NCBI GenBank assembly: GCA_964647995.1
Contig: CAZYNP010000004.1
Location: 124,422 to 188,421 of the forward strand
DNA: 64,000 nucleotides
Reading direction: 5' to 3'
Source of the DNA: an uncultured Cytophagia bacterium
GTDB taxonomy: Bacteria; Zhuqueibacterota; Zhuqueibacteria; Thermofontimicrobiales; Thermofontimicrobiaceae
The translations under genes were made by a program, and so were the position numbers. The first letter of the stretch is position 1; every line of letters starts with the position of its first letter. Below, piece by piece: positions 9,269 to 49,040 of this stretch. The notes under the pieces were generated by a model. That model searched no databases. It was given only the letters and a program-made list of their open reading frames with translations, and had not been told where the DNA came from.

Positions 9269-9997
9269 TCAGTAATAGATTCTTTCCAGACACAATCCTT
9301 TCGCCGGAACGGTGGGGCCGGCATTATTTCGATCGCGTGACTCCAGAATACTGGGTATATCGTCGACGGCAGTAAATCCCCGTCCGACATTGATCATCGT
9401 TCCCACAATAATCCGCACCATGTGATGCAAAAAACGATTGGAGACGATATTTAAAATTAATGTAGTTGCCATTTGTTCCCAATCGATCCTTTCAATACAG
9501 CACCGCTGCCCTTCTTGCGGATCATCCACCCGACAAAAAGCCCGAAAATCATGTTCCCCCAATAGATAGTTCGAAGCTTCCTGCATCCGGCCGACATCCA
9601 GCGGCGAACGGTACGTCCAGCAATAAAACCGATTGATCGCTCGTTCCTGCCGGGTAATGGTATAGCTATAATGCCGTCTGATGGCATCAAAGCGCGCATG
9701 AAACGCAAGCGGCATCTCCGCAGCCGATAGGATTCTAATGTCGCGCGGCAGATTGCCATTCAGCGCGGCCATGATTTTTTCGGGCGGCATGGGGTGGTCG
9801 AGCCTGAAATTAGCCACCTGCCCCCGGGCGTGAACACCGGTATCGGTTCGGCCTGCGCCAATGACGGCAATATCGCTGCGGAAGATCTTTTTTAGAACAT
9901 CCTGCAAATCGCCCTGAATTGTGCGCAATCCCGGTTGGTATTGCCAGCCGTGGAAATTAGTACCATCGTATTCGAGCAGCAGTTTGATATTTCGCAT
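9269..9997 (-). CDS. truA: tRNA pseudouridine(38-40) synthase
   Basis: 242 aa, [23 protein letters not shown]...[18 protein letters not shown], with the catalytic-Asp region typical of TruA. Confidence 0.9.
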
Positions 9998-10018
9998 GGC
10001 GCCAGTTGCTACTGATTA

Positions 10019-10867
10019 CTAAAAGTAAATGAACAAAAACGTTAAGCCCAGCGCGCTGGCCAGGAAATAATAATCCTCGCGGCCGAACGCCAACGCCTGG
10101 TAATTGGTTCGGCCCTGACCCCCGTTGTAGCAGCGCGCATCCATGGCCAGGGCCAGTTCATCGGCACGCCGAAACACGGATAGGAACAGCGGGAGCATCA
10201 ACGGAATCACGCTCTTTATTCGCCGAATGATATTTCCTTCGAACGTTGCGCCTCGAGAGATCTGAGCCTTCTGAATCTTATCGGCCTCCTCGATCAGGGT
10301 CGGAATAAAGCGCAGCGACAGGGTCATCATCATGGTTATTTCATGCGTTGCCAGGCCCCATCTTTTTTGTAGTGGCCGCAAAAAACGATCCAACGCATCA
10401 GTAATCTCCATGGGTGAAGTGGTCAGTGTTAAAATTGCCGCCAACAGAATTAAAATTACCAGCCGAATAGAATAGAGGGTGCCGTTCAGCAAGCCACGGC
10501 TGGATATGCCAATCCCCACATACGGAATGGTGATAATTTTCGAATCCTGATCACTCAAAAACAGGTGTAGCCCGATGGTCAACAATAGTAGCCATAAAAA
10601 CGGGCGCAGATTTTTCAGCACCAGCATCAGGGGCAAATGAGCCATGCCGATCAGCGCCAGAATGATTATCAGCGAAACCAGTAGCTTAATAATGCTGTGG
10701 GTAGCCACGAACAACATCATGGCGACCAGGATTACCAAGATTTTGGTGCGTGGATCCAGGCGATGCACGAATGAATCGACCGGGTAATATTGCCCCAGAG
10801 TAATGTTGTTTAAAATGGCCATGTTATCTTTTAAGTATTGGGCGGAATATACGGATTTTTTTTGCAA
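10019..10867 (-). CDS. ecfT: energy-coupling factor transporter transmembrane component (EcfT/CbiQ family)
   Basis: 282-aa polytopic membrane protein with a conserved GQYYPxDSFVHRLDPRTKI N-terminus and the A-x3-RG loop (ISRGATFEG) of ECF T components. It lies adjacent to truA, as is common. No ecfA genes are in the window. Confidence 0.7.
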   Translation of the reverse strand: MQKKSVYSAQYLKDNMAILNNITLGQYYPVDSFVHRLDPRTKILVILVAMMLFVATHSIIKLLVSLIIILALIGMAHLPLMLVLKNLRPFLWLLLLTIGLHLFLSDQDSKIITIPYVGIGISSRGLLNGTLYSIRLVILILLAAILTLTTSPMEITDALDRFLRPLQKRWGLATHEITMMMTLSLRFIPTLIEEADKIQKAQISRGATFEGNIIRRIKSVIPLMLPLFLSVFRRADELALAMDARCYNGGQGRTNYQALAFGREDYYFLASALGLTFLFIYF

Positions 10868-11014
10868 AATGCAAGCCCTGTGGTTGGCAATATTTCCGCT
10901 GAATTATTTTTTTCTTGACATTTTGCCGTTTTTATTTTATTTTGCATGGCAACTAATTCGCGTAGATTTCGAAAACTGGTTTATCACATCGATTCTTAAG
11001 GAGTAGGAGGAAGC

Positions 11015-13078
11015 ATGGCAGAAATCAAAAGCAGTTCTTCCGCAACAGGTCCTCGTTATCAACCCTATGTCCCCGCCAGCACCAGCATGAAGGAATTCAC
11101 CCTCCGCGCATTGCTGATCGGTTTAGTGATGGCGGTGGTTCTTGGCGCGGCCAACGTGTATCTGGGATTGAAAGCCGGTATGACCATCGCCGCGACCTAT
11201 CCTGCTGCAGTGATTGGCATGGCCATTCTGCGAGTGGTAAAAGGCAATATTCTTGAAGAGAATTTTGCCCGTACCGTCGGTTCCATCGGCGAATCAGTGG
11301 CCGCAGGGGCCATCTTTACCATCCCGGCGTTTTTCCTGGCGGGCATCTGGAAGGAGTTCGTTACCACCGGGCACTACCTGCAATCCGCAGCCATCATGCT
11401 CGTGGGTGGCGTCCTGGGCATCATGTTTGTGGCGCTGCTGCGCCGGGTGATGGTGGAAGACGCCGAATTACCCTTCCCGGAATCGGTCGCAGCCGCGGAA
11501 ATCCACAAGGCGGGTCGTGCGGGTGGCACCGGCGCCAAATTTCTGTTCAGTGCCATGGGTATTGGTGCGTTCATTCAAACGCTGGCTTCGTTGAATCTAT
11601 TCAAGACTACCTGGGAACACTTCGTACCTTTTGCCAAAAAAAGCATCGGTTTGCTCTCCAGTGGCAGCGCAACCGGCCAGAGCGGTTTGTTGCTTAGTTC
11701 TCCCGGCGTAAAGCCGGCCTACATTGGCGTGGGCTACATCATCGGTCCCAAACTTGCATCACTGAACTTTAGCGGCGGCCTATTGGCGTGGGGACTTTTT
11801 GTGCCCATTCTCACCTATTTCATCGGTCCTTCCCTGTTCCCTGAAGGTGCTGCGGAAGCTACCTGGGTGGCCATGGCCAATAACGTGTGGAGCCGCATCG
11901 TCCGCCCCATTGCCATCGGCGGCATGCTCATGAGTGCGGGCTATACCCTGTTCCGGATGCGCAACAGCCTGGCGATTGGCATCAAGCGCTCCATCGGTGA
12001 CGTGAAAAAAGCTGCCACAGGCGAGCAGGTGGTGCTCCGGACCGAGCAGGATTTAAAGTTGCAACAGGTGATGATCGGCATTCTGCTCACTGCTGTTGCC
12101 ACCTTTTTTATCTATTACTTTTTTGCTCAAAACGTCGTTGCGGCGCTGGTCGCCATGATTGTGATGATCATTGCTGGCTTTTTCTTTGCCGCAGTATCGG
12201 GCTACCTCGTCGGCATCATCGGGTCGAGCAATAATCCCATCAGCGGCCTGACCATTTCTACGCTGCTGGTTGCGGCCATCCTGATGGTCGTGCTGGGGAT
12301 GAAAGGCGACTTTGGTGTCGCCGCTGTGCTGGGCGTGGCCGCGGTCGTGTGCGTCTCCGCAGCCGTTGCTGGCGAGATGTTGCAGGATTTAAAAGTGGGA
12401 CATATCCTGGGTGGTACCCCCTGGAAAATGCAGGTGGGTGATCTATTAGGTGTCGGGCTATCGGCGCTGGTCATGTTTGTGCCGTTGTTCATTTTGCACC
12501 AGGGCGATATCAATCAGGGCAAATTGGCTGATTCACCGTACGAAGGTGGCTTTGGCAGCGCCAAATTACCAGCCCCGCAAGCCGGGTTGATGGCATTGTT
12601 GGCCAAAGGCATTGTCGGCGGTGAGATGGCGTGGCCGTTGATCATTGTTGGAATGTTTATGGGATTTGGTTTTATTTTGATGCAGGTCAAAAGCCCCATG
12701 CTGGTCAGCGTCGGCATGTATCTGCCCTTGGAAACCACCTTCGCCATTTTCATTGGTGGCTTGATCAAAGGCATCGTCGAAAAAATCAGTTCGGCCCGAC
12801 AGCACAATGACGCGCAGAAAGCACGCATCGAAAATATTGGCATCCTGCTGGCAGCAGGTTTGATTGCTGGGGAGGCGTTGATCGGATTAATCTTCGCCGC
12901 ATTGGCGGTGGGCGAAGTCGATTACGGCAACTTTTTGCCTCGTATTTTCTCGTTCCTGCCGCTGCCGTTTTCGGTCAGCTTGTTGGTTTTCATTTTTATC
13001 GGCTGGATCTTGATCCAATTTCCATTGAAAAACGCCGGCAAAGCGGATGAACCCGCGCCACCAAGTGCAGTGATGTAG
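11015..13078 (+). CDS. OPT-family oligopeptide transporter
   Basis: 687 aa with about 16 predicted TM helices and an OPT-like N-terminal segment (EFTLRALLIGLVMAVVLGAANVYLGLKAGMTIAATYPAAV). An RBS-like GGAGG sits 8 nt upstream. Confidence 0.8.
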   Translation: MAEIKSSSSATGPRYQPYVPASTSMKEFTLRALLIGLVMAVVLGAANVYLGLKAGMTIAATYPAAVIGMAILRVVKGNILEENFARTVGSIGESVAAGAIFTIPAFFLAGIWKEFVTTGHYLQSAAIMLVGGVLGIMFVALLRRVMVEDAELPFPESVAAAEIHKAGRAGGTGAKFLFSAMGIGAFIQTLASLNLFKTTWEHFVPFAKKSIGLLSSGSATGQSGLLLSSPGVKPAYIGVGYIIGPKLASLNFSGGLLAWGLFVPILTYFIGPSLFPEGAAEATWVAMANNVWSRIVRPIAIGGMLMSAGYTLFRMRNSLAIGIKRSIGDVKKAATGEQVVLRTEQDLKLQQVMIGILLTAVATFFIYYFFAQNVVAALVAMIVMIIAGFFFAAVSGYLVGIIGSSNNPISGLTISTLLVAAILMVVLGMKGDFGVAAVLGVAAVVCVSAAVAGEMLQDLKVGHILGGTPWKMQVGDLLGVGLSALVMFVPLFILHQGDINQGKLADSPYEGGFGSAKLPAPQAGLMALLAKGIVGGEMAWPLIIVGMFMGFGFILMQVKSPMLVSVGMYLPLETTFAIFIGGLIKGIVEKISSARQHNDAQKARIENIGILLAAGLIAGEALIGLIFAALAVGEVDYGNFLPRIFSFLPLPFSVSLLVFIFIGWILIQFPLKNAGKADEPAPPSAVM

Positions 13079-13090
13079 CAGAGTTTCGTT

Positions 13091-13126
13091 ATCATCAGAG
13101 AGGCAGCGCTGCCTCTCTGATGATAA
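13091..13126. repeat. perfect 16-bp inverted repeat (hairpin) directly after the OPT gene
   Basis: atcatcagagaggcag-cgct-ctgcctctctgatgat. No T-tract follows on either strand, so it is not a canonical intrinsic terminator. It may be a protein-binding palindrome or a REP-like element. Confidence 0.5.
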
Positions 13127-13320
13127 AAATTAGATCCCAAACCATGCCTCCAGCTACTGGAGATCTTAATTCCATTTTTTAATTTTAAATGGGGCGTTCA
13201 TTCTATCAATAAGCCTATTCTGGAATCGGTCGGACTGGGACAGAGAGCGATAGACTTGAGCTACCACAGTGAAGGCAAGGAAAGTAATTCAGCAGCGCAG
13301 TTCATGCAACACCCTATCAA

Positions 13321-13734
13321 GTGAATCGCAATCAAGCGGGCCATCATCGTATTGCCATGAGACAACCGACAAGGAACCTTTTCGATCTTATCCCAATCAC
13401 AACTATTCCAAGCGAAACCGCCAGCGATGGCCGGGTCACACTGCTTAAGCCGAAATTCCGCCATCGACTGCTGGTAAAATATCTGCTGCCGCGACTGAAA
13501 GCACCTTATTTCAAGATCACCCTGGATCGATATGGCAGCTTTGTGTGGCAGCAATGTAACGGCAGTTTTAATGTCAAACAAATAGCGAATCTCTTTCAGG
13601 AAAAATTTCCGGAAGACGCAGCGCAGGCCGAGGAGCGCGTGGCCATGTTTCTGCAACATTTGCAGCGCTTGCAAGCAGTAGAATTTCGCTCCGGTCAAAT
13701 TCAATCATTGACCAATAATTCATCAACCAACTGA
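13321..13734 (+). CDS. PqqD-family protein (RRE-type peptide chaperone-like)
   Basis: 137 aa with a PqqD-like core LDRYGSFVWQQCNGSFNVKQIANLFQEKFPEDAAQAEERVAMFLQHLQRLQAVEF. The true start may be the internal Met (MRQPTRNL). Confidence 0.55.
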   Translation: MNRNQAGHHRIAMRQPTRNLFDLIPITTIPSETASDGRVTLLKPKFRHRLLVKYLLPRLKAPYFKITLDRYGSFVWQQCNGSFNVKQIANLFQEKFPEDAAQAEERVAMFLQHLQRLQAVEFRSGQIQSLTNNSSTN

Positions 13735-13800
13735 TTAACTTAACTGATTTCGATTCGGCAAACTCCTCCTTGGGGGGAGGAAAATCAATTCGTAGCAGCA

Positions 13801-14754
13801 ATGGCCAAATTAGAAAAAGCCATCCATAAACTCTTCGCCGACTGCCTAAAAATAGTTCCTGGCGATTCCTGTTTGATTCTGGTGGACCCGGGCACCTGCC
13901 AACTGGGGGAGATGATATTCAAAAATTTCCCGCGCATCAGGGCTGAGGTGGCGCTGTTGGAAGTTCAGCCCTTCAACGCGAATCAGATCGAACCGCCCGC
14001 CGCCATCTTGAACATGCTCAAGCAAATGTCGGCGATCGTGGCTTTTACTTCTAACTCGTTGATCCATTCCAACGCGTTGAAACACCTCTGTCATAACGGC
14101 GCGCGCGTGCTGTGTCTGGAGCCCATGTCGTCCGAAGCCTTTGTTCGCGTCATTAATACCGATTATCAATTTATCGAACTCAAAAGCCGGCGCCTGGCCG
14201 ACCTCTTTTCCATCGGGCACAAGATTCAAGTGCTTACCGCAGCCGGCACCGATCTGACCATTCCCATCGCCCGACATCGGGGGATGGCCAATACCGGTGT
14301 GGTTCATGAGCCGGGTAATTTTAGCCTGTTGCCCGCAGGTGAAGCAGCCATCACTCCCGATCTGCATGGGACAGAGGGGGTCATCGTGGTGGATGGTTCC
14401 ATTCCAGCATTGGGATTGCTGCAAAATCCCATTGAGCTCAAAGTCAAAAGCGGCTATACCTATCAAATTACGGGCGGCGAGGAAGCTGAAAAATTGCGCA
14501 AGATCCTGAAACCATTTGGGAAGCTGGGCCGCAACATCGCCGAATTCGGCATCGGAACCAATCCCCACGCCCTCCTGACCGGGCAATCGCTCGAAGATGA
14601 AAAGGTGCTGAGCACTGCGCATTTTGCCCTGGGGCATCACGTCTACGAAGGGGGACGATTGAAAGGAAAACTCCATCTGGATCTGATCATCAAAACACCG
14701 ACCATCACCATCGACGGCCGAATTATCATGGACGCCGGCAAGTTGTTGATCTAA
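13801..14754 (+). CDS. M29-family aminopeptidase (AmpS/PepS-like)
   Basis: 317 aa. The C-terminal region EFGIGTNPHALLTGQSLEDEKVLSTAHFALG...KLHLDLIIKTPTITIDGRIIMDAG resembles aminopeptidase T/S. Confidence 0.7.
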   Translation: MAKLEKAIHKLFADCLKIVPGDSCLILVDPGTCQLGEMIFKNFPRIRAEVALLEVQPFNANQIEPPAAILNMLKQMSAIVAFTSNSLIHSNALKHLCHNGARVLCLEPMSSEAFVRVINTDYQFIELKSRRLADLFSIGHKIQVLTAAGTDLTIPIARHRGMANTGVVHEPGNFSLLPAGEAAITPDLHGTEGVIVVDGSIPALGLLQNPIELKVKSGYTYQITGGEEAEKLRKILKPFGKLGRNIAEFGIGTNPHALLTGQSLEDEKVLSTAHFALGHHVYEGGRLKGKLHLDLIIKTPTITIDGRIIMDAGKLLI

Positions 14755-27366: not shown

Positions 27367-27390
27367 CATTTAGCAACCGATTTCTTTGTG

Positions 27391-27430
27391 AAGCTCCTTG
27401 TCCTGTCATTTGGGCAAGGAGCTTTTTTGT
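27391..27430 (+). terminator. intrinsic terminator
   Basis: aagctccttg...caaggagctt stem followed by TTTTTTG, directly after the 26200 ORF. Confidence 0.7.
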
Positions 27431-27503: not shown

Positions 27504-27532
27504 CTTGACTTTTTACGATTGTTGGCTTATAT
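27504..27532 (+). promoter_or_regulatory. sigma70-like promoter TTGACT-17nt-TATATT with a ~250-nt leader
   Basis: Hexamers and spacing read directly. It would give the OmpA-family gene an unusually long 5' UTR. Confidence 0.4.
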
Positions 27533-27786
27533 TCTTACCCAGAATAGCGGAACAATATAGCGAATTCCGGATCTCAGCAATCAGAATTGCCGCCGGCAAA
27601 TTTCTGACCAACGACAATCGATCACTGAGAAATTACTTCTGTTTTCGATGCAGGATCAGTTCCTGCCACGGACAAGACACGATTTACCTATATTTTTTTG
27701 AACCAAATTGCATCTTCCTGAGCACTTATCGATAGCAACAGGGTTTAGACATCCTTTGTCGACTGTCAAACGGATACTTCAAAATT

Positions 27787-29286
27787 TTGGGAGACTGTGC
27801 TATGAACAAGTGTTATCCTCGTTGTCTACCTTCTAACAAAATGAACCATATCTTCTGGCTATCACTGCTGCTGGCCCTGGGAGTTGTCCTGCTTTCTGCT
27901 GCTGCCCATGCCCAGGACAACATCAAAGCGCGGGTCTTTCAACGGGTCACCGATCTTCTGAACGAGGCCAAAGCCGAACAAGCCGACCTGCTGTCGCCAA
28001 CCACATTTACCAAAGCGATGCAGGAATATGAACAGGCAGCGAAGGATTTCGATCGTGGGAAAAATGTCCAGAAAAAAATTGGCGAGGTGAAAACGCTGCT
28101 GGAGTCGGCAGTGGAAAACGCCAAACTGGCCAAGATCACGCTGCCACACCTGTTGCAGGCTCGTGAGGATGCTCTCGAGGCCAATGCCACCGAATTTGCC
28201 AAAGCTGCCTATGATAAGGCAGAGATGCTGTTTTATGAGACAACCACCACCCTGGAAAAAGGGGCTCTGGATAAAGCCAAAGAAAGAGCATTGACCACCG
28301 AAAAACTCTATCGAGAGGCCGAGTTGCTCGCTATCAAAGCCAGCATCATTGGCAATGCCAAACTGCGACTGCAACAGTCACAGGAGCAAAATGTCAATAA
28401 GTTTGCGCCCATTACCTTCAAAAATGCGGAGACACTACTGGCAGAAGCCGAAAAAATCCTGACCAGTGACCGTAGCGCCAAATCCGAAGCGCGGCAGAAG
28501 GCTGAGGCCGCCGCCTACGAAATCGAACATGCCATTTATCTGTCCAAGATCATCCAGGCATTACGAAAAGACGAAGCCAATTGGGAAAAGCTGATCTTGC
28601 AAAATGAGAAATATCTTTCTCAGATCATTGCTCAATTGGGATTTGCACCTGAATTCAATGAGGGCTTCGACCGGCCGGTTAAGTCCGCCGTCGATGCCAT
28701 TATTAATTTGCAAAAAGAGAAACAGAAGCTGGCCAATGAAATTTCCAGCCAGGATCAAACCATTGAATCACTCAATGGGACGATCATGAAACTCAGGGCG
28801 GAACTGGATCAAACCAAGGAACAGGAAGCCGGTTTGAAGGCGCGGCTGGCACTGGAACAGCAAAAACGGGAGCGCTTTCAGAAAATCGAATCGATCTTCG
28901 AGCCAGAAGAGGCGGCTGTGTTGCGCGAAGGCGATCAAATCCGGATTCGATTGTTGAAATTGAATTTTCTCAAGGGCAAAGCCGTGATCGAGCCAGAATA
29001 TTTCCAGTTGCTGACCAAGTTGCAGCGCGTGATTCGGATGCTGGATGAATATCATGTGGCCATCGAAGGTCACACCGATAACATCGGAGATGATCGCGTC
29101 AATCAGTCGCTCTCCCTGCAACGCGCCAAAGCAGTAAAAGCCTATTTGATGGCCAATATGGCATTGACCGAGGATCAAATTTCGGCCATCGGCTATGGGG
29201 AGAGCAAACCTATCGCTTCCAATGATAACGAAGCCGGTCGCGCTCAGAACCGTCGCATCGATGTGGTGTTCACACCCAATCAATAA
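27787..29286 (+). CDS. OmpA-family protein (coiled-coil N-region, C-terminal OmpA/peptidoglycan-binding domain)
   Basis: C-terminal HTDNIGDDRVNQSLSLQRAKAVKAYLM...GYGESKPIASNDNEAGRAQNRRIDVVF. The likely real start is Met 27841 (MNHIFWLSLLLALGVVLLSAAAHA signal peptide). Confidence 0.85.
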   Translation: MGDCAMNKCYPRCLPSNKMNHIFWLSLLLALGVVLLSAAAHAQDNIKARVFQRVTDLLNEAKAEQADLLSPTTFTKAMQEYEQAAKDFDRGKNVQKKIGEVKTLLESAVENAKLAKITLPHLLQAREDALEANATEFAKAAYDKAEMLFYETTTTLEKGALDKAKERALTTEKLYREAELLAIKASIIGNAKLRLQQSQEQNVNKFAPITFKNAETLLAEAEKILTSDRSAKSEARQKAEAAAYEIEHAIYLSKIIQALRKDEANWEKLILQNEKYLSQIIAQLGFAPEFNEGFDRPVKSAVDAIINLQKEKQKLANEISSQDQTIESLNGTIMKLRAELDQTKEQEAGLKARLALEQQKRERFQKIESIFEPEEAAVLREGDQIRIRLLKLNFLKGKAVIEPEYFQLLTKLQRVIRMLDEYHVAIEGHTDNIGDDRVNQSLSLQRAKAVKAYLMANMALTEDQISAIGYGESKPIASNDNEAGRAQNRRIDVVFTPNQ

Positions 29287-29350: not shown

Positions 29351-29887
29351 ATGATTCGAAAGCGATTATTATTACATACCTGTTGTGCGCCATGCGTGGT
29401 GGTGCCGGTGGAGCGATTGGCCGCGCAATACGACATTACCTGTTTCTTTTTCAATCCCAATATTCAGCCGGCCGAAGAGTATCACCGGCGGCTGGCTGAA
29501 CTGGAACGAATCCGTGAGCGCTTGAATGTCGAAATGATCGTTCCGGCTTATGATCCCGATCGGTGGCTGGAGTTGGTGCGCGGCCTGGAAGCTGAGCCCG
29601 AAGGCGGCAGGCGCTGCGCCATTTGCTTTCAGGTTCGGCTGGAGGCTACCGCACAGGTAGCAAAAGAACGACAATTTGATGTGATGACCACTACTTTGAC
29701 GATCAGTCCCCACAAAAATGCTGCGCTGATCAATCAAATTGGCCAAACGCTCGGCGAAACGTATGGCGTGGCGTTTCTGGAAGAGAATTTCAAAAAGAAA
29801 GATGGTTACAAACGAAGCATCGAACTGAGCAAACTCCATCAGCTCTACCGGCAACATTACTGCGGTTGCATCTTCAGTCAACCATGA
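29351..29887 (+). CDS. queH: epoxyqueuosine reductase QueH (DUF208)
   Basis: 178 aa, LLLHTCCAPCVVVP...RRCAICFQVRL...YRQHYCGCIFS, the QueH Cys motifs. Confidence 0.85.
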   Translation: MIRKRLLLHTCCAPCVVVPVERLAAQYDITCFFFNPNIQPAEEYHRRLAELERIRERLNVEMIVPAYDPDRWLELVRGLEAEPEGGRRCAICFQVRLEATAQVAKERQFDVMTTTLTISPHKNAALINQIGQTLGETYGVAFLEENFKKKDGYKRSIELSKLHQLYRQHYCGCIFSQP

Positions 29888-29897
29888 GCGTCAGGAA

Positions 29898-30929
29898 TTG
29901 GAGGAGCGGGGTATGAGAGAAGCCATGTTTTATCGCCAGTTGGAAGAGGACCGAGTGATCTGTGAGTTGTGTCCTCATTTCTGCAAACTAAAAACCGAAC
30001 AAATTGGGATTTGCGGTGTTCGTAAAAATATCGCAGGCCATTTATATTCGCTGGTCTATGGCCATGCCATTGCCGTTCATGTCGATCCCATCGAAAAAAA
30101 ACCGCTGTTTCATGTAATTCCGGGCACGGGGTCTTTCTCCCTGGCAACCGTTGGTTGCAACTTCCATTGCAAATTTTGCCAGAACCATGACATTTCTCAG
30201 GTGAATAAAAACGGCGACTTGAAATACTATGGCCAGGAAATCAATCCAGAAGACATTGTGACCATGGCCCGGCGCAATGGTTGCCGTTCCATTGCCTATA
30301 CCTACACCGAGCCGACGATCTATTTTGAATATGCCTATTATTCAGCCCGGCTGGCCCACGAAGCAGGATTGCTGAATGTGTTGGTGACCAATGGGTATAT
30401 CAATCCAGAGCCGCTGCGGTTCATCAGCGAATTTATCGATGCGGCGAATGTCGATCTCAAAAGTTTCAGCGATAATTTCTACAAAAAATTTGCCGGCGCC
30501 AAAATTGCTCCAGTCCTGGAGACACTCAAACTGATGAAACAACTCAATATTTGGGTTGAAATCACCACCCTGGTTATTCCCGGCGAAAATGATTCGCCAC
30601 AAGAGCTGCAGCAAATAGCGAGCTTTATCAAGAATGAACTGGGGCCGGAGACGCCCTGGCACATCAGTCGTTTTTATCCCCAATATCAGATGCATGATCA
30701 TCCGCCGACCCCGCAGGCAACGTTAGAAAGGGCCCACAGCATCGGACGGGAACAGGGACTGCGATATGTTTACCTGGGCAATGTGCCCGGCAATGCTGCA
30801 GAAAACACTTATTGTTATGCCTGTGGCAAGCTGCTGATCGAGCGATTTGGTTATCAGATAATCGAAAATAATATCCAATCTGGTACCTGTAAATACTGTC
30901 AGACCACCATCGATGGCCTGTTTAGCTAA
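29898..30929 (+). CDS. AmmeMemoRadiSam-system-type radical SAM enzyme (PFL-activase-like)
   Basis: 343 aa, REAMFYRQLEEDRVICELCPHFCKLKTEQIGICGVRKNIAGHLYSL...DPIEKKPLFHVIPGTGSFSLATVGCNFHCKFCQNHDISQ, with an N-terminal Cys cluster plus CxxxCxxC. Starts 10 nt after queH. Confidence 0.8.
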   Translation: MEERGMREAMFYRQLEEDRVICELCPHFCKLKTEQIGICGVRKNIAGHLYSLVYGHAIAVHVDPIEKKPLFHVIPGTGSFSLATVGCNFHCKFCQNHDISQVNKNGDLKYYGQEINPEDIVTMARRNGCRSIAYTYTEPTIYFEYAYYSARLAHEAGLLNVLVTNGYINPEPLRFISEFIDAANVDLKSFSDNFYKKFAGAKIAPVLETLKLMKQLNIWVEITTLVIPGENDSPQELQQIASFIKNELGPETPWHISRFYPQYQMHDHPPTPQATLERAHSIGREQGLRYVYLGNVPGNAAENTYCYACGKLLIERFGYQIIENNIQSGTCKYCQTTIDGLFS

Positions 30930-30964
30930 TCTTACATCAATACAAACCAAAGGAGACCACCCAC

Positions 30965-31807
30965 ATGGCCAGCACCAATCTGCTGCCACCAATGACCGCT
31001 ATTCGCATGGTCTGGGCTCAGACAGGGAAATTTTCCAATGACGAACAATCACGCGAAACCGCAACCCTGGTCGACGCCAGCCTGAAGGATATCATCGATC
31101 AGGCGGAAGGCGATGAGAAAAAGTACATTACCAGCGCTGTCGCCACTATGAACGCATGTCTGCGCAGCCTGGATATCGTCTATAAAGGCCGGGAACTCAA
31201 TTTTCAAGAGAATGAAAAGCTCCGGTTGGCATACCTGGAGTCCATCAAAGAGAGCCTGACCTTTGGCGAAAAAGCCAAAGACTTTATGCAATCCATCCCC
31301 ACGATGACCATCAGTGCGGCTGGCGGTCTGACCATTGGCCAGCTTATGGGCGTCCCGCCGATTACGCTGACGGGGATTGCGCTGGTTTTGGCTGCCGCCG
31401 GTTATCTGTTCAATCGCTTGATAGTCAAACGCGCACGACGCAAAAGCCAACTGCTCTATATCGCCCAGGACTATGAGCGCAGCCTATATTACAATCATTA
31501 TGTTTCGCGCGTTTCTTCCATTTTGACCTCGCTCTATCTGGACCTTGATCGCATTCACAAGAATATTTTTCAAACCTCCTATCCCATCGATGGCATCGAG
31601 CTGAGCAAAATGATCAAAGAATTGCTGGATGGCGTGCGGCCCTCATTCTGCCCGTATATTCATAAACACATATTGGAAAAAAAGATCACCCCGGAAATTT
31701 GGGCAACCTGCGAAACCGGTGGCAAAGAGGCTATCAAATATTGTCCCCATTGGAACTACGAAACTGGGGTGAATAAACTAAAAGCGGTAGTAGAAAAACG
31801 GGTCTGA
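30965..31807 (+). CDS. hypothetical protein with a central double TM hairpin and a Cys/His-rich C-terminus
   Basis: 280 aa. Hydrophobic stretch PTMTISAAGGLTIGQLMGVPPITLTGIALVLAAAGYLF, then C-terminal SFCPYIHKH...WATCETGG...KYCPHWNYE. No family recognised. Confidence 0.55.
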   Translation: MASTNLLPPMTAIRMVWAQTGKFSNDEQSRETATLVDASLKDIIDQAEGDEKKYITSAVATMNACLRSLDIVYKGRELNFQENEKLRLAYLESIKESLTFGEKAKDFMQSIPTMTISAAGGLTIGQLMGVPPITLTGIALVLAAAGYLFNRLIVKRARRKSQLLYIAQDYERSLYYNHYVSRVSSILTSLYLDLDRIHKNIFQTSYPIDGIELSKMIKELLDGVRPSFCPYIHKHILEKKITPEIWATCETGGKEAIKYCPHWNYETGVNKLKAVVEKRV

Positions 31808-31870
31808 TATCTTTGTGCTATCTACTGACAATTGATTTTTCCAAAACACTATTGAAAGGAAAAAACGAAG

Positions 31871-33595
31871 ATGACAGATCAAATTCGGCATGTTGTCATC
31901 ATTGACATTGACGGCTTGCGCCGCGATGTACTTTATAATACGCTGGCCGAGGACAGCCTGCGCGATGAGACCAACAAGCGTTTGCCCAACCTATCACGAA
32001 TTGTCGGCCAACTCAGCCTGGAAAAAATCACCTCACCCGACGCCATTGCAGTGTTTGGTGATTACGATGTGTCGCAGAGCGAATCCATTGTCGTCAATCG
32101 CTGCGTCACTGCTTTTCCATCCTATACCTACCCCTGCCAGACATCCATTTTCACCGGTCTTTTTCCCAAACACCATGGCATCACCGCCAATTTTCATTTC
32201 GACCGCAGGGGGCAATCGCTGGGAGCCAAAGGCAAAACCGAAAACTACTCCAAATTTGAAGCGCTGAGCTTTTTTATAAACGAAGGCAGCGGCAGCCGCA
32301 TGATGAACAAAGGCACCCAGACCATCTACGATTACTTGCATGAACAGTACAAATGCGCCGTTTGCTACAACCTTTTCGTGTCACAAGATAAAGCGGCCGT
32401 AAACCACATCGTCGGCGTTTTCCCCTGGCGTCTGCCCTGGCGCTTCGATGGCGCCGATCCCAAAGCCATCGATTGGATTATTCCCAATATTTTCAACCAG
32501 ACACAATTCCTCACTGAACGTGCGGCGGATGGCATCGGCGACTATCGCGAAAATTTCGATGAGGAAATGATGGATGATGCCATTCGCTACTTAGAAGATT
32601 TTGTGCGACACAAGCATGCGCCGCCCAATCTATTCACCCTCTATTTTGGAGGGCACGATCACCAGGCACACATCAATTTACGGGGCGCATTGCAGGATCA
32701 TGGCGATATCATTGCCCAGCGAGACTACCTGATCAACACTGTCGATACCCAATTGGGACGCTTCTTGAAAACCTGGGCTAACTTATCCAAATTTGAGCCG
32801 CTCAATGACACACTATTCGTCATCTGTTCGGATCATGGCCATACCGGCGCTGAATTGAACGATGCCAAACGAATCACACGTGCCGAAATGAAAGCGCTGT
32901 TGAAACGCTGCGGCTATGATATATTGGGCAAAGGGGAATTTGGGGAAATTGAATCATCCTGCAATGCCATTATTACGATCACCGCAGCCGCCGCTCAAAT
33001 CTATATTCGTAGAGGCATCTTTGGTTATCGAACACGGGGTGAAAAAATCGATTGGCCAGAACAACCAACCTTCAAAGACCTGCGCGAATTGTTGCAGCAA
33101 CTCAGCCAGGCCAATCAGGCGACTCCCAGCGGCAGCAATTTTTTAGCCGATGCCCTGGATTATATTCTATTCAAAGATTATGAAAAAAATGCTTATCAGA
33201 TCTACCACTACGATCACCATCGGGCTGCTGATCGCATCGCCGCGCTGACCTCCAATTTTGGTAAAGAAAAAGGATACATTTTAGCTCAGGACCGACTGCA
33301 AGAGATGTACGGTGACAATAGCGGCGACATTATTTTATTGATCAACTATCAACAGGACTTTCGGTTTGAAAAAAGTCATCGCATGCGATCGACCCATGGC
33401 AGCTTGTTGCCCAGCGATTCCTATGTACCCTTGATTTTTGCCACACCGTTCAACCGCAAGCTGCTGAAAAAAGCCGCCGCGGGTAGCTATCCCAAAGGCG
33501 TCATCCAGCAGGCACGAATTTATGACATCACGCCGACCATTGTTGGTCGATTCGGAATCCATCCGGCTAATCTGGATGGGAAGGAACTCTTTTAG
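31871..33595 (+). CDS. type I phosphodiesterase / nucleotide pyrophosphatase (alkaline-phosphatase superfamily)
   Basis: 574 aa, VVIIDIDGLRRD...YPCQTSIFTGLFPKHHGI...ICSDHGHT, with metal-ligand and catalytic-nucleophile motifs of PF01663-type enzymes. Confidence 0.7.
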   Translation: MTDQIRHVVIIDIDGLRRDVLYNTLAEDSLRDETNKRLPNLSRIVGQLSLEKITSPDAIAVFGDYDVSQSESIVVNRCVTAFPSYTYPCQTSIFTGLFPKHHGITANFHFDRRGQSLGAKGKTENYSKFEALSFFINEGSGSRMMNKGTQTIYDYLHEQYKCAVCYNLFVSQDKAAVNHIVGVFPWRLPWRFDGADPKAIDWIIPNIFNQTQFLTERAADGIGDYRENFDEEMMDDAIRYLEDFVRHKHAPPNLFTLYFGGHDHQAHINLRGALQDHGDIIAQRDYLINTVDTQLGRFLKTWANLSKFEPLNDTLFVICSDHGHTGAELNDAKRITRAEMKALLKRCGYDILGKGEFGEIESSCNAIITITAAAAQIYIRRGIFGYRTRGEKIDWPEQPTFKDLRELLQQLSQANQATPSGSNFLADALDYILFKDYEKNAYQIYHYDHHRAADRIAALTSNFGKEKGYILAQDRLQEMYGDNSGDIILLINYQQDFRFEKSHRMRSTHGSLLPSDSYVPLIFATPFNRKLLKKAAAGSYPKGVIQQARIYDITPTIVGRFGIHPANLDGKELF

Positions 33596-33612
33596 CTGCA
33601 AGGGGAATACCA

Positions 33613-34221
33613 ATGCCACCTTCAAAATTATCGTTAGAATTGAACCTGGACCTGGCCAGCCTCTCATGGCCGCAAAAGATCGAATTGCCTTACTTTGAGG
33701 GCGAAATGGGCGGCTTTCATTATTCACAGCATCCCACGGATCCCCTGAGCATCGAAGCGATCGAATTGGGCATTGCCGCCGCTAACCGGCTGCGCCTGTC
33801 GCTGCGGGGCACCGGCCGACTGAACGTGAACAATGCGCCAGATCTTCGCATTGGGGGCACCAAACTGCAATTGGAGGCCACGCTAATTTTAGCGAATGGC
33901 CGGCTGCAACTGACGCAGCCGGAACTGGTAAAATTGGATCTGCCCAACCTGCCCCCTTTTGGCGACAATATGCTTCGCGCCATCTTCAATCGGCATCTGA
34001 TCGCAGCATTAACTGAGAATCTAACCATCGATCTGCAGAGCATTCTGGATAAAATTCAGGCCGATCTGAACCAGCCCATCCCGCTGATCGCCTCGCCAAA
34101 TCAATTTTGGCTCCGGCTCAACTTGGACACAGTGACGCCGGAAATTCAGATTGGCCACGAAGGAATTTCGGTCATACTCAATTTAACTCTCCATCCGGCC
34201 GTTAGCCGGGAATGGACATAG
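33613..34221 (+). CDS. hypothetical protein
   Basis: 202-aa ORF starting 17 nt after the phosphodiesterase gene. No recognisable motifs. Confidence 0.45.
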   Translation: MPPSKLSLELNLDLASLSWPQKIELPYFEGEMGGFHYSQHPTDPLSIEAIELGIAAANRLRLSLRGTGRLNVNNAPDLRIGGTKLQLEATLILANGRLQLTQPELVKLDLPNLPPFGDNMLRAIFNRHLIAALTENLTIDLQSILDKIQADLNQPIPLIASPNQFWLRLNLDTVTPEIQIGHEGISVILNLTLHPAVSREWT

Positions 34222-34240: not shown

Positions 34241-35131
34241 CTATGGTTTTGGCGATTGGCGGGATACGGTGGCTGCTGGCGTGACGGCTTTCATTTGATA
34301 GAGCACAATGCCATCGCAAACTGGAGTGAGGATATGCTTTTTTCGCTTGCGCGTGTACCGATAGAAATCTTCGCGCACCACGCGGCGGGTATATTTGGAA
34401 GCATGGACAAAATCTTTCCCGTCGATCAGGATGCCCTCATGCCCGACAATGATTCCACTTTTGAACAATTCCTTTGGTATCACCGCAACCCCACAGACCG
34501 CTGGCAGTTGCTGCAACAGTTCGCGCGTAATATGCGCTTTGGGGAGATATGCCAGTTCCACCTTCTTTTCCCAATCGATTGGTAGAAAATGGGTGCCGTC
34601 TTCCTGCCGGTTCAGGACCAGCCGCACAGTGTCCAGCCTGGTGGGATCAGCCACGGCTGAGGTTATTATTTCGAAATAAGGCGAGGTAAGCAGTCGATCC
34701 GAGGTGAAATGAATGCGGTTGCGATACGAAATCGGGTTTTGTCCAACGGACGGCGGATAGTAGTTCAAAAAAGTCATCAGCGACTCGGCCTCATGATAAC
34801 TTTGGGCACTGGCCAGCGCCATCGTGGTTAAAACGAACGCGGTGCAGTTGGTTTTATCGAGGCGGAAGATCGGTGCCGGTTCGATGCCACTGCCCTCGCC
34901 GATGGCTTGCCAATCGAATGGCGTTCCCAGCCGTGCCAGAGCAATCAGCCGAATCCGGTCTTCGAATTGCGGCTGTTCTCGCTGCAGGGTCTGTAACAAT
35001 TGATCGATTTCCTGAATCGAGAGCTGCTGCAAATTTTTATGAAGGTGCAGGGAATTGGAGGAATTTTTCATTGCGGACGCGGGAGCGAACAGATACATCA
35101 TTCCAGCGATCAACCATACAAATCTACCCAT
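34241..35131 (-). CDS. DUF1460-like putative amidase/transglutaminase-fold protein
   Basis: 296 aa with a signal peptide. DKTNCTAFVLTTMALA resembles the catalytic-Cys region of DUF1460/NlpC-like proteins. Assignment is tentative. Confidence 0.45.
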   Translation of the reverse strand: MGRFVWLIAGMMYLFAPASAMKNSSNSLHLHKNLQQLSIQEIDQLLQTLQREQPQFEDRIRLIALARLGTPFDWQAIGEGSGIEPAPIFRLDKTNCTAFVLTTMALASAQSYHEAESLMTFLNYYPPSVGQNPISYRNRIHFTSDRLLTSPYFEIITSAVADPTRLDTVRLVLNRQEDGTHFLPIDWEKKVELAYLPKAHITRELLQQLPAVCGVAVIPKELFKSGIIVGHEGILIDGKDFVHASKYTRRVVREDFYRYTRKRKKHILTPVCDGIVLYQMKAVTPAATVSRQSPKP

Positions 35132-35199: not shown

Positions 35200-35277
35200 T
35201 GGTCGGGGCGCCGAGATTTGAACTCGGGACCTCCTGCTCCCAAAGCAGGCGCGCTACCCGGACTGCGCTACGCCCCG
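35200..35277 (-). tRNA. tRNA-Pro (anticodon TGG)
   Basis: Reverse complement is CGGGGCGTAGCGCAGTCCGGGTAGCGCGCCTGCTTTGGGAGCAGGAGGTCCCGAGTTCAAATCTCGGCGCCCCGACCA. It has a 7-bp acceptor stem, D loop, anticodon loop TTTGGGA, T-loop GTTCAAATC and an encoded CCA. Confidence 0.9.
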
Positions 35278-45079: not shown

Positions 45080-45587
45080 TTTCAGATTGATACGTTCGTT
45101 GTTAACTTTTGGCTAATCAATGTCTACAGATAATCGATTTTTGACCTGGAACTGGCAGAGAGACGATGGTGACAGTTGACAGTTGTCAACCGAATCAGAA
45201 TGATCCAATGACCGCCACGCCACCACGACGATCAGGCGGCGTCTGCCATTGCGTGTTGAAAACGCCGCCAAAAATCTGGCAATCGCATCCAGATGCTTCG
45301 GGTTTTGTTCGCTCAGCGGCCTGTTGTCCTGGAAGTTAGAATGCCGGTTGACTCCGAGATAGCCATTCATCACCTCCCCATTCAGGCTTACGAGCACTAA
45401 TACTATAATTAAATAAAAGGAGAAAGTCAAGAAGATTGTGGGAAAAGGTTGGTGATATTTTGTCATTTCTGGCAGGAGGAAAAAAACTATCTCCGCTTGT
45501 CGAAAAAGCGATTTCGACAAAAAATGTTCTGACCCATGGCAAATGTGACTGGCAGCGTTGGTCAGCAATGTCCTGGTCGCGGTGCAG

Positions 45588-45875
45588 TTATTTTTTCGAA
45601 GATGACCGGGATGATTGTTTCCATAAAATATATCCAGTGACCAGAATGGCTATCACCAGATTGGTGATAAAGATGGCGTTCCAGAATGTGACATTGTAAA
45701 AAAATCTGCCCAGTCGCATCCGAAAAATCAGGATGAGAACTCCCAAAAGAGCGTAGATAAATGCATAGATGTAGTACAGGAAGATGTTGCCATGATTGTA
45801 GTCCTCGAACAGCGCTCTGAGGATGAAGAACAAAAGTGCGCTGCATAGTATGCCGAAAAAGACTGGAAGTAGCAT
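45588..45875 (-). CDS. small 3-TM membrane protein (hypothetical)
   Basis: 95 aa, strongly hydrophobic, with AAGGAG RBS 8 nt upstream. This is the only ORF in the 45.1-47.2 kb stretch with reasonable signals. Confidence 0.4.
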   Translation of the reverse strand: MLLPVFFGILCSALLFFILRALFEDYNHGNIFLYYIYAFIYALLGVLILIFRMRLGRFFYNVTFWNAIFITNLVIAILVTGYILWKQSSRSSSKK

Positions 45876-46686
45876 GACTTTTGCTCCTTATTTTTGTACT
45901 GGATTGCAGTGGCACATCCACCATTTTCAAAAAATGAATTGGCAAATTGAAATTCATTGACAGCTTAAATGGCAGAAATTCGTTCCAAAGTGGGTAGTGG
46001 CTGGAGAGCAATGCAGCACGAAATGCGATTCTGTTTCTTGGGCAGCGGTGAATATTTTCGGTTATTTGGTATAACGATCCAATCGATGCTCAGCCTCCGA
46101 GGTAGAAGAGCAGGCAGCCCCGAAAGGCCGGGCGCTTGCCAGCAGAGAGAGGGCATTGACGATTTTACAGCCAATGTCTGACTTCGGATTGAATTAAAAT
46201 ATAGCTATCACCTCCTGAATATTTATTTGACGGCATAAATTTCGACAACATGTTACACCAATAATATAACCAGATTTTCTTGAAAGTCAAGTAGATTTTA
46301 TACTCAAAAAAAATAACCAAACAGAACAATGCCCAATGGAGGGCTAACTCGACTATGAGCTGACAATTGGCAATTCTTGACGGCCATCGGCTATTTTTCG
46401 CCGGCAGGGTCACACGCACCAAGTGCGGCAAAGAAATCCCTCGTCGAGGGAAAACTGCAAGGCATTTTGCGTTCGTTGACGGCTGAAGCGTAGGCTGATC
46501 CATAGGGTTCTAATAAGCAGAGCAAACAATTGTCCTTATGCAAATACGGCCCAGGGATCGATGGCAGCATCTAATCTGAGTTTTCTAAACTAAATTATAA
46601 TCTGTCGGAAAAAATCCAAACGCCTTCCGGCCGCTGGTGTTGACCAGATCAATAAGTCACAAAAATCTCATCAATACCAAATTGGC

Positions 46687-48035: not shown

Positions 48036-49040
48036 CTAATTTTTCCGCTGGCGACGCTTGCGGAAGTAGTCTCGCGCCAGGTCGTTCCACAATTGACTCC
48101 AGGTCATTTCGGTATTGGCACGAAGCGGCACGTAGCATGCGCCGCAGGTATTGTGATTGGTGAAATTCGTCACCAACGCCCGTCGATTCTCAAACCTGAT
48201 CTTATGCATGGCACACGGAGCCAGGGTACCATCTGGATTGACGACCAGATGCCGAATACCGGTGCGGCAATTGGGGATGTGGTTGGTCTCGAAGAAATCG
48301 ATCATGCGACGAAAAACGGCCTCGGTATTCACGATTGGTGCGCCCTGCCGCCGCATCGCGATCAACTGCTCGATTTGATGACGCAACAATTGCAGCTCTT
48401 GCGTTGTTTTCAGGGAATGCGCATCGCTCTGGGTCCGCAATTGCGTGTAGGAACTAAACGTCAATGAGGCGCCCCAGCGAAACGCGGTGTTGGCAATATC
48501 CAGCAGATAGGGCAAATTTTCTCGCCGAATGACGGAGATCATGGCAATATCATGATAACCCAGTGCGGTCATGCGCGGGATGATTTCCGAGAGATGCTTG
48601 AAGAGCCCCGGAATCTGCCGATTTTTGTCATGACGCTCGTCGGGCATGTCCAGTGAAAATGAAAATTGATCGACGCCGGCCTGTTTGAGCTCCACGTATT
48701 TCTCCACGGTCATCAGCGAAGCGTTGGAGACAAAGGCAATCATGGGCAATGTTCCATGACTCCGAAACAATCGTACCACATCGAGATAATCCTGGCGCAG
48801 CAATGGCTCGCCGCCGGACACCTGGGCAAACAGGGGTCTCAATTGGCGATAGATCTGATCGAATTTTTCTGGTGGCGCCAATTTTTCGTTGGGGATGATG
48901 CCGTCCTTGTCGCAATGGGAACAATTGGCATTGCAGGAGTGCGTGATCTCGAACGATATTGCCAGTGGTTTTTTCATGAGCAGATTGGCAACGCCACGGA
49001 CAAATAGCCCGCGGGCCAGCTTCGGCGAAATATTTTTCAT
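48036..49040 (-). CDS. radical SAM protein with a SPASM/twitch-like C-terminal Cys cluster
   Basis: 334 aa. CNANCSHC (Cx3Cx2C) near the N-terminus and a C-terminal NCRTG...PCAMH...CGACY. RBS GGAAGGAGAGG. Confidence 0.8.
   Translation of the reverse strand: MKNISPKLARGLFVRGVANLLMKKPLAISFEITHSCNANCSHCDKDGIIPNEKLAPPEKFDQIYRQLRPLFAQVSGGEPLLRQDYLDVVRLFRSHGTLPMIAFVSNASLMTVEKYVELKQAGVDQFSFSLDMPDERHDKNRQIPGLFKHLSEIIPRMTALGYHDIAMISVIRRENLPYLLDIANTAFRWGASLTFSSYTQLRTQSDAHSLKTTQELQLLRHQIEQLIAMRRQGAPIVNTEAVFRRMIDFFETNHIPNCRTGIRHLVVNPDGTLAPCAMHKIRFENRRALVTNFTNHNTCGACYVPLRANTEMTWSQLWNDLARDYFRKRRQRKN

Follow-up and report, generated by a model that had tools for sequence, protein, structure and literature searches.

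The AmmeMemoRadiSam system combines a radical SAM enzyme (rSAM) of the family TIGR04337 with AMMECR1 (PF01871) and Memo (PF01875), and the literature, as far as it could be searched, assigns no function to this system and contains no link between QueH and such an rSAM. QueH proteins (DUF208) are epoxyqueuosine reductases, the phosphodiesterases (PDEs) of the nucleotide pyrophosphatase/phosphodiesterase (NPP) or ENPP type (PF01663) include several lipid phosphodiesterases (ENPP2, ENPP6 and ENPP7), and the TULIP proteins include E. coli YceB/DUF1439, botulinum OrfX/P47, Der f 7, SMP/Mdm12, JHBP/Takeout and BPI/CETP. Members of the first three groups, and a protein with the predicted fold of the fourth, are encoded by a string of five consecutive genes, queH, rSAM, P280, PDE and P202 (we name P280 and P202 by their lengths in amino acids), in a stretch of 64,000 nucleotides (nt) of contig CAZYNP010000004.1 from an uncultured bacterium (assembly GCA_964647995.1, positions 124,422 to 188,421), which as a whole we call the window.

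The five open reading frames (ORFs) were read on the + strand between 29351 and 34221 and, with their starts as listed, are separated by gaps of 10, 35, 63 and 17 nt (Table 1). A preliminary description, made from the sequence alone, had given this spacing and had named a QueH, an AmmeMemoRadiSam-type rSAM and a phosphodiesterase; it had also noted that no AMMECR1 or Memo gene lies in the window and that the function of the rSAM family is unknown. The ORF list bore out the spacing, profile searches confirmed the names, tblastn, phmmer and hmmsearch agreed on the missing genes and the searchable literature agreed on the missing function. What did not hold was its proposal of a single functional unit made up of all five genes, with a hint of nucleotide- or tRNA-related chemistry. 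The loci and proteins closest to the five gene products carry the label candidate division KSB1, and the full five-gene order recurs in a single locus of our sample, L001, a KSB1 metagenome-assembled genome with 75-92% identity (loci are given here by our own numbers); other KSB1 loci, and the other loci of P280 and the PDE, do not have the set. Neighborhood comparison, chosen beforehand as the refuting test, thus showed a five-gene set that is not conserved beyond one close relative, although its queH-rSAM part is conserved within one lineage. We conclude that the five genes are probably a mosaic of three independently inherited modules and not one system, a reading that rests on comparison of sequences and gene orders. 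The parts belong to known kinds or, in two cases, to small uncharacterised families, and the string is an ordinary lineage-specific string that should not be used to deduce the function of the AmmeMemoRadiSam rSAM.

The most direct alternative is that all five genes serve one lineage-specific pathway, in which the rSAM, P280 and the PDE would act in sequence with QueH on a nucleotide-, tRNA- or cofactor-like molecule. The common strand, the short gaps and the order kept in L001 speak for it, as does our finding of no strong intrinsic terminator within 29351-34221. However, retention in L001 weighs little because L001 is a close relative, and relatives whose rSAM is 66-75% identical lack P280 and mostly lack the PDE and P202 as well. 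Moreover, the PDE and P202 occur without QueH or rSAM in L096/97, the PDE stands alone in L098, P280 is otherwise a solo gene, and the predicted fold of the PDE's partner P202 is a lipid-binding TULIP fold rather than a nucleic-acid-binding one, which also argues against the hint of nucleotide or tRNA chemistry. We regard a single pathway as highly improbable. The three putative modules of the mosaic are taken up in turn below.

The queH-rSAM pair and the missing AMMECR1 and Memo

The QueH of the window is a full-length member of its family (PF02677, 238.1 bits against a gathering cutoff of 23.5, with residues 6-177 matching positions 1-173 of the 175 in the profile). It shares the cysteine motifs CC..C, CxxC and CxC with described QueH proteins, and nothing in the protein itself is unusual; it stands out from the usual QueH only by the lineage-wide adjacency of its gene to one for a TIGR04337 rSAM. 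The rSAM is equally clear as a family member (TIGR04337, AmmeMemoSam_rS, 389.1 bits against a cutoff of 220; PF04055, 87.6 bits) and carries the CX3CX2C motif as CNFHCKFC; its nearest solved structure is PflA only. Its likelier start is the ATG at 29913, which has GGAGGAG just 5' of it, and not the TTG at 29898, and most homologs align from residue 6. With this start the gap between queH and rSAM is therefore 25 nt instead of 10.

In a metagenome scan with the rSAM we collected 80 loci with relatives 43-77% identical to it. In all 19 loci of the KSB1 lineage (rSAM at least 66% identical, L001 and L094/95 included) queH lies directly 5' of the rSAM gene, with a gap of 20-60 nt in 14 and of 137-234 nt in the remaining five. 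These 19 loci amount to about a dozen distinct sequences, in which QueH is 58-85% and the rSAM 66-92% identical, and they have a common backbone of genes for a TPR protein (- strand), SIR2 (- strand), SLBB, a 388-aa outer-membrane protein, usually OmpA, QueH and the rSAM. Because all have the same upstream backbone, the 19 loci constitute one evolutionary observation of vertical synteny. Past the rSAM the order breaks down: the next gene varies among most of the distinct loci (MFS-like, ABC ATPase, an opposite-strand PpiD/SurA-like rotamase, Exo_endo_phos or PHP-domain), and since downstream content differs in this way we place the rSAM at a synteny breakpoint. Outside the lineage, QueH was found within about 6 kb of the rSAM in none of the 66 loci whose rSAM is at most 58% identical.

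The window rSAM shares 49% identity with rSAMs whose genes adjoin one for a Memo-AMMECR1 fusion, yet its conserved neighbor is queH, not AMMECR1 or Memo, and the genomic association of the described system is not seen in the window. Neither tblastn, phmmer nor a hidden Markov model (HMM) built from six AMMECR1 or Memo-AMMECR1 fusion sequences from related loci gave a significant match to AMMECR1 or Memo in the 64 kb (best tblastn E 0.066). An adjacent AMMECR1 or Memo-AMMECR1 fusion is present in only three of the 80 rSAM loci (L054, L057 and L060), so that the missing neighbors are the norm in this sample and not an anomaly.

A question arising from these observations is whether the constancy of the queH-rSAM pair has a functional basis. 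The KSB1 rSAM might take part in the queuosine or tRNA-base pathway, or might act on QueH as maturase or partner of this Fe-S enzyme. The adjacency in 19 of 19 loci, mostly at short distance and kept where OmpA is missing and where the downstream genes have changed, is in line with such a role. Memo contexts, too, have reportedly been linked to the modification of nucleotide bases and isoprenoids. Also, comparative work has led to the proposal that AMMECR1 takes part in an uncharacterised RNA base modification (PMC4075521), which fits a functional pair. Against this stand the single line of descent behind the 19 loci, the lack of any nearby QueH in the 66 loci of other lineages, and the finding of neither another queuosine gene nor a preQ1 riboswitch near the cluster. 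QueH works without a partner of this kind in other bacteria, and our literature search brought up no paper linking the two. We consider a functional pair unlikely. In the mosaic reading, the first module would consist of queH and the TIGR04337 rSAM as the closing genes of the KSB1 backbone (SIR2, SLBB, outer-membrane protein, OmpA, QueH, rSAM); QueH would presumably reduce epoxyqueuosine to queuosine in tRNA, and the rSAM would presumably be a PflA-like activase or a modifier whose AMMECR1 and Memo partners are encoded elsewhere. A by-product of the comparison is a clean, phylum-wide queH-rSAM pair in KSB1.

Two recurrent neighbors of the rSAM family were seen away from the window. In 15 loci within L029-L047, whose rSAM is 56-58% identical, a protein of 131 aa is encoded two genes downstream on the opposite strand (for example L032, 8152-8547, - strand); with the sequence TRIVGYYSR it weakly resembles the C terminus of the profile of NrdD, the anaerobic ribonucleotide reductase (22.9 bits, below the cutoff of 26.2). 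Possibly this is a mini glycyl-radical protein on which the rSAM, as an activase, might act; the 15 loci represent one syntenic lineage. Among the ORFs of the window itself we found no glycyl-radical motif that would point to an activase substrate. In 11 further loci, among them L056, L062-L065, L074, L078, L085, L089 and L092, a polytopic membrane protein of about 775 aa with a spermidine/spermine-synthase domain (PF01564) is encoded 3' of the TIGR04337-type rSAM (for example L074, 6375-8699, + strand), and several of these loci hold two tandem rSAM paralogs. It is the most recurrent neighbor of the rSAM family outside the two large syntenic lineages.

P280, a membrane protein of many contexts

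Neither P280 nor P202 matches a curated family above threshold, and the exact sequence of the window P280 is not on record. A word-indexed search of 5.8 billion proteins returned 81 homologs of P280, and the full HMM scan of 1.84 billion representatives, a search of the kind recommended in the preliminary description, returned 197 clusters at 50% identity, which makes it a rare family. Its members are 45-76% identical across KSB1, Anaerolineae, Planctomycetes/Kuenenia and an archaeon of the Methanotrichaceae, and thus occur in both bacteria and archaea. P280 has a conserved N-terminal helical region followed by a pair of very long helices in antiparallel arrangement (50-109 and 132-202) with a hydrophobic tip at about residues 110-157 that is split by GVPP. 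We read this tip as one two-helix hairpin rather than the double transmembrane hairpin first described, whereas the C-terminal Cys/His cluster of that description stands: C229, W246, C249 and C260 do not vary in 33 diverse members, and the closer members also all have H235, giving a cluster of C229/H235/C249/C260. No informative fold match was obtained. Six long members of the family (P0162, P0180, P0191, P0192, P0199 and P0202) carry C-terminal Ig-like domains of the DUF11/BatD/TRAP_beta/CARDB type; such domains are usually extracytoplasmic, which puts the topology of the family in question, and as a clue to function these fusion partners pointed to nothing clear.

We found P280 in ten distinct genomic contexts, and no neighbor is common to them. 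In the window and L001 it lies beside the rSAM and the PDE. Its homologs lie beside UvrC and a LysM-DUF4015 protein in L002 (Anaerolineae), beside rubrerythrin (- strand) and AMMECR1 in L003-5 (Methanotrichaceae), beside transposases in L006 and in L101, beside a large CarboxypepD_reg-domain protein (- strand) with a weak GH113 match and formate-tetrahydrofolate ligase (- strand) in L007/8, beside a metallo-beta-lactamase-LTD protein in L009/10, beside unknown proteins in L011 (Kuenenia, where an unrelated rSAM and a metallophosphoesterase are encoded further 5'), and beside an S8 peptidase and a PAS histidine kinase in L099/100; in L012/13 a B12-binding rSAM is encoded two genes 5' of the homolog. 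In addition, none of the 80 metagenome rSAM loci contains a P280 homolog, and P280 is absent from the same slot of L094/95 and L020. Since the slot lacks P280 in these relatives, we interpret P280 as an insertion between the rSAM and the PDE in the lineage of the window.

One context stands apart from the others. In the Methanotrichaceae the P280 homolog is the immediate 5' neighbor of AMMECR1; the two genes share a strand, are about 57-80 nt apart and have opposite-strand genes on either side. In KSB1, P280 lies directly 3' of a TIGR04337 rSAM. It is conceivable, therefore, that P280 is an accessory, a membrane anchor or a substrate of the AMMECR1-Memo-rSAM system that was recruited beside different members of it in different lineages. 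By our rough estimate the a-priori chance that P280 would adjoin a gene of this system in one of the nine further contexts is about 0.02, and the hypothesis preceded the look; in L011, L012 and L101 rSAM genes other than TIGR04337 occur at a distance of a few genes, and the P280 family is very highly conserved (45-60% identity) across two domains of life. The idea has to contend, however, with the eight of ten contexts in which AMMECR1, Memo and TIGR04337 are all missing from the vicinity, with the 80 rSAM loci devoid of P280 and with the want of a fold match that would inform on function. Furthermore, the rSAM of L011 does not match that of the window, and rSAM genes are abundant in these anaerobes. 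A role for P280 in this system appears distinctly improbable to us. A combined version, in which the queH-TIGR04337 and P280-AMMECR1 pairings are both functional, the system acts on a queuosine-type tRNA base or on its Fe-S reductase, and P280 is its new accessory, is very unlikely, although if true it would give the first experimental handle on a widely conserved system with one member linked to human disease.

Under the mosaic, P280 would be the second module, a solo and sporadic membrane hairpin with a Cys3His metal knuckle, acquired by insertion in the common ancestor of the window and L001. Two further suggestions as to its nature were rejected. For an origin in a mobile element, we found no relatives in IMG/VR, PLSDB or INPHARED, the GC content and the GC content at third codon positions (GC3) are like those of the neighbors, and transposases lie beside it in only two of the ten contexts. 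For a defense system, P280 had no PADLOC match below E 0.01, and for the cluster as a whole PADLOC gave only a generic viperin-like similarity of the rSAM and nothing for the other four proteins. What the comparison does add is a small, highly conserved family of membrane proteins with a Cys3His site, present in archaea as well as bacteria and not covered by a Pfam model.

The phosphodiesterase and its predicted TULIP-fold partner

The PDE matches PF01663 (Phosphodiest) with 67.5 bits against a cutoff of 23, and its D12, T86 (the nucleophile), N107, D263, H267, D321, H322 and H509 are unchanged across 12 members of the family. Because the bimetallo core is invariant and neither a signal peptide nor a transmembrane segment was detected in the protein, we presume that the enzyme is active and cytoplasmic. 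Its nucleophile motif aligns with those of ENPP5 and PhnA, whereas elsewhere the protein is very distant from solved structures (E about 0.002), and it differs from described NPP/ENPP enzymes in its length of 574 aa with large insertions, in its apparent cytoplasmic location and in its predicted TULIP-fold partner. The subfamily is small, with only 14 database matches, almost all of them from KSB1.

For P202, a structural model built on a six-sequence alignment predicts a long helix wrapped by a curved antiparallel beta-sheet, which resembles known TULIP proteins. P202 is set apart from those proteins by the lack of any sequence-family match, apart from a sub-threshold one to DUF4403, and it differs from YceB in having neither a signal peptide nor a lipobox, hence in being, as predicted, cytoplasmic. 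On the strength of the model P202 is a predicted lipid-binding protein, and the existence of lipid-directed ENPPs fits a TULIP partner of the PDE.

Is this pair tied to the rSAM? In L094/95 the order is QueH, rSAM, PDE, P202-like gene, tRNA-Pro and Ham1, without P280 and the AmiA-like gene of the window. In L096/97 a P202-like gene lies 30 nt 5' of the PDE gene in an unrelated context (PfkB kinase, HAD phosphatase and CHAT-TIR proteins) with no QueH or rSAM. L098 has the PDE alone, and in L020 a P202-like gene follows the rSAM with no PDE and is itself followed by tRNA-Pro. From these contexts we take the PDE and P202 to be a recurrent pair that occurs in either order and is separable from the rSAM. 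A neighbor-joining tree of the KSB1 rSAMs, drawn without support values, is compatible with one gain of PDE/P202 followed by losses or with two gains. As the third module of the proposed mosaic, the pair would comprise a cytoplasmic NPP-type bimetallo phosphodiesterase and a lipid-binding TULIP-fold partner; P202 would most likely bind or present a hydrophobic phosphodiester, for instance a lipid head group or a polyprenyl phosphate, and the PDE would hydrolyze it. The modeled fold hints at an action of the pair on a hydrophobic phosphodiester, and a KSB1-restricted cytoplasmic PDE with a predicted TULIP partner suggests a lipid phosphodiester-processing module in this uncultured phylum. In the unrelated lineage of L096 and L097 the pair is followed (9765-14556) by a CHAT-TIR-AAA_35 protein and a 902-aa AAA_35-WD40 protein, architectures that are typical of NTP-dependent conflict systems.

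Several observations weigh against a mosaic of three independent modules. The PDE, P202 or both follow the rSAM in three KSB1 sublineages (the window and L001, L094/95, and L020), which may indicate a looser association between the rSAM and P202/PDE. The queH-rSAM pair outlasts the loss of OmpA and many downstream rearrangements, a persistence that may exceed passive synteny. Likewise, the adjacency of P280 to AMMECR1 in Methanotrichaceae would be unexpected were P280 unrelated to the AMMECR1/rSAM system. The lipid substrate of the PDE is deduced from the predicted fold of its partner and from a shallow alignment of six sequences, and the neighborhood sample comprises 12 contig look-ups and one metagenome scan that is biased towards close relatives.

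Chromosomal setting and transcription

The upstream flank of the string contains genes for dihydroorotate dehydrogenase subunits, a TPR protein, SIR2, SLBB and an outer-membrane protein, and the downstream flank contains tRNA-Pro, a Ham1/ITPase-family gene, an HtrA-like protease, an anti-sigma/ECF sigma pair and holA. These are housekeeping genes, and the locus is therefore core chromosome and not an island. The five genes do not stand out from their neighbors in base composition or GC3. As judged from gene order, the stretch from the rSAM to tRNA-Pro is a variable slot whose content differs among KSB1 sublineages and which is bounded by tRNA-Pro in three of them. The equivalents of the window's tRNA-Pro(TGG) gene after the P202-like gene lie at 14237-14312 in L001, 10465-10540 in L094 and 4130-4205 in L020. 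The AmiA-like gene, by the same comparison, is a further lineage-specific insertion in the slot.

Table 1. Positions in the window of the five genes, of putative transcription signals and of adjacent genes.
Feature	Position	Strand	Description
Intrinsic-terminator-like hairpin	27390-27425	+	14 bp stem and T run; ends upstream outer-membrane protein gene
Sigma-70-like promoter match	27505-27533	+	10/12 consensus positions; precedes OmpA-family gene
OmpA-family gene	27787-29286	+	499 aa; PF00691, 74 bits; syntenic in L001, L016-L022 and L094/95
queH	29351-29887	+	178 aa; epoxyqueuosine reductase, DUF208 family; PF02677
rSAM	29898-30929 as listed (likely start 29913)	+	343 aa; TIGR04337
P280	30965-31807	+	280 aa; uncharacterised membrane protein, no curated family
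PDE	31871-33595	+	574 aa; NPP-type, alkaline-phosphatase superfamily; PF01663
P202	33613-34221	+	202 aa; predicted TULIP fold (YceB/BPI/Takeout-like), no curated family
AmiA-like amidase-family gene	34241-35131	-	Convergent; present only in the window and L001
tRNA-Pro(TGG)	35200-35277	-	Conserved right-hand boundary of slot

With no strong terminator inside the string, and with a strong terminator-like hairpin and a promoter-like site preceding the OmpA-family gene, co-transcription is plausible, and we consider the five genes probably co-transcribed. The terminator-like hairpin is the probable 5' limit of the transcription unit, and the OmpA-family gene is possibly its first gene, although the promoter-like site is a consensus match only and such sites are not more numerous in the region than expected from shuffled sequence. 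Sequences resembling ribosome-binding sites precede the rSAM and P280 starts. A search with Rfam found no riboswitch or leader 5' of queH; its matches were a tRNA and a sub-threshold PyrG-leader, which we rejected because it coincides with the terminator hairpin itself.

Elsewhere in the window, two overlapping ORFs of about 150 aa without a Pfam match lie at 45113-46011 (- strand), just 3' of a gene for a 1142-aa UvrD-like helicase, and a second radical SAM gene is found 17 kb downstream, at 48036-49040 (- strand), its 334-aa product scoring 57 bits on PF04055.

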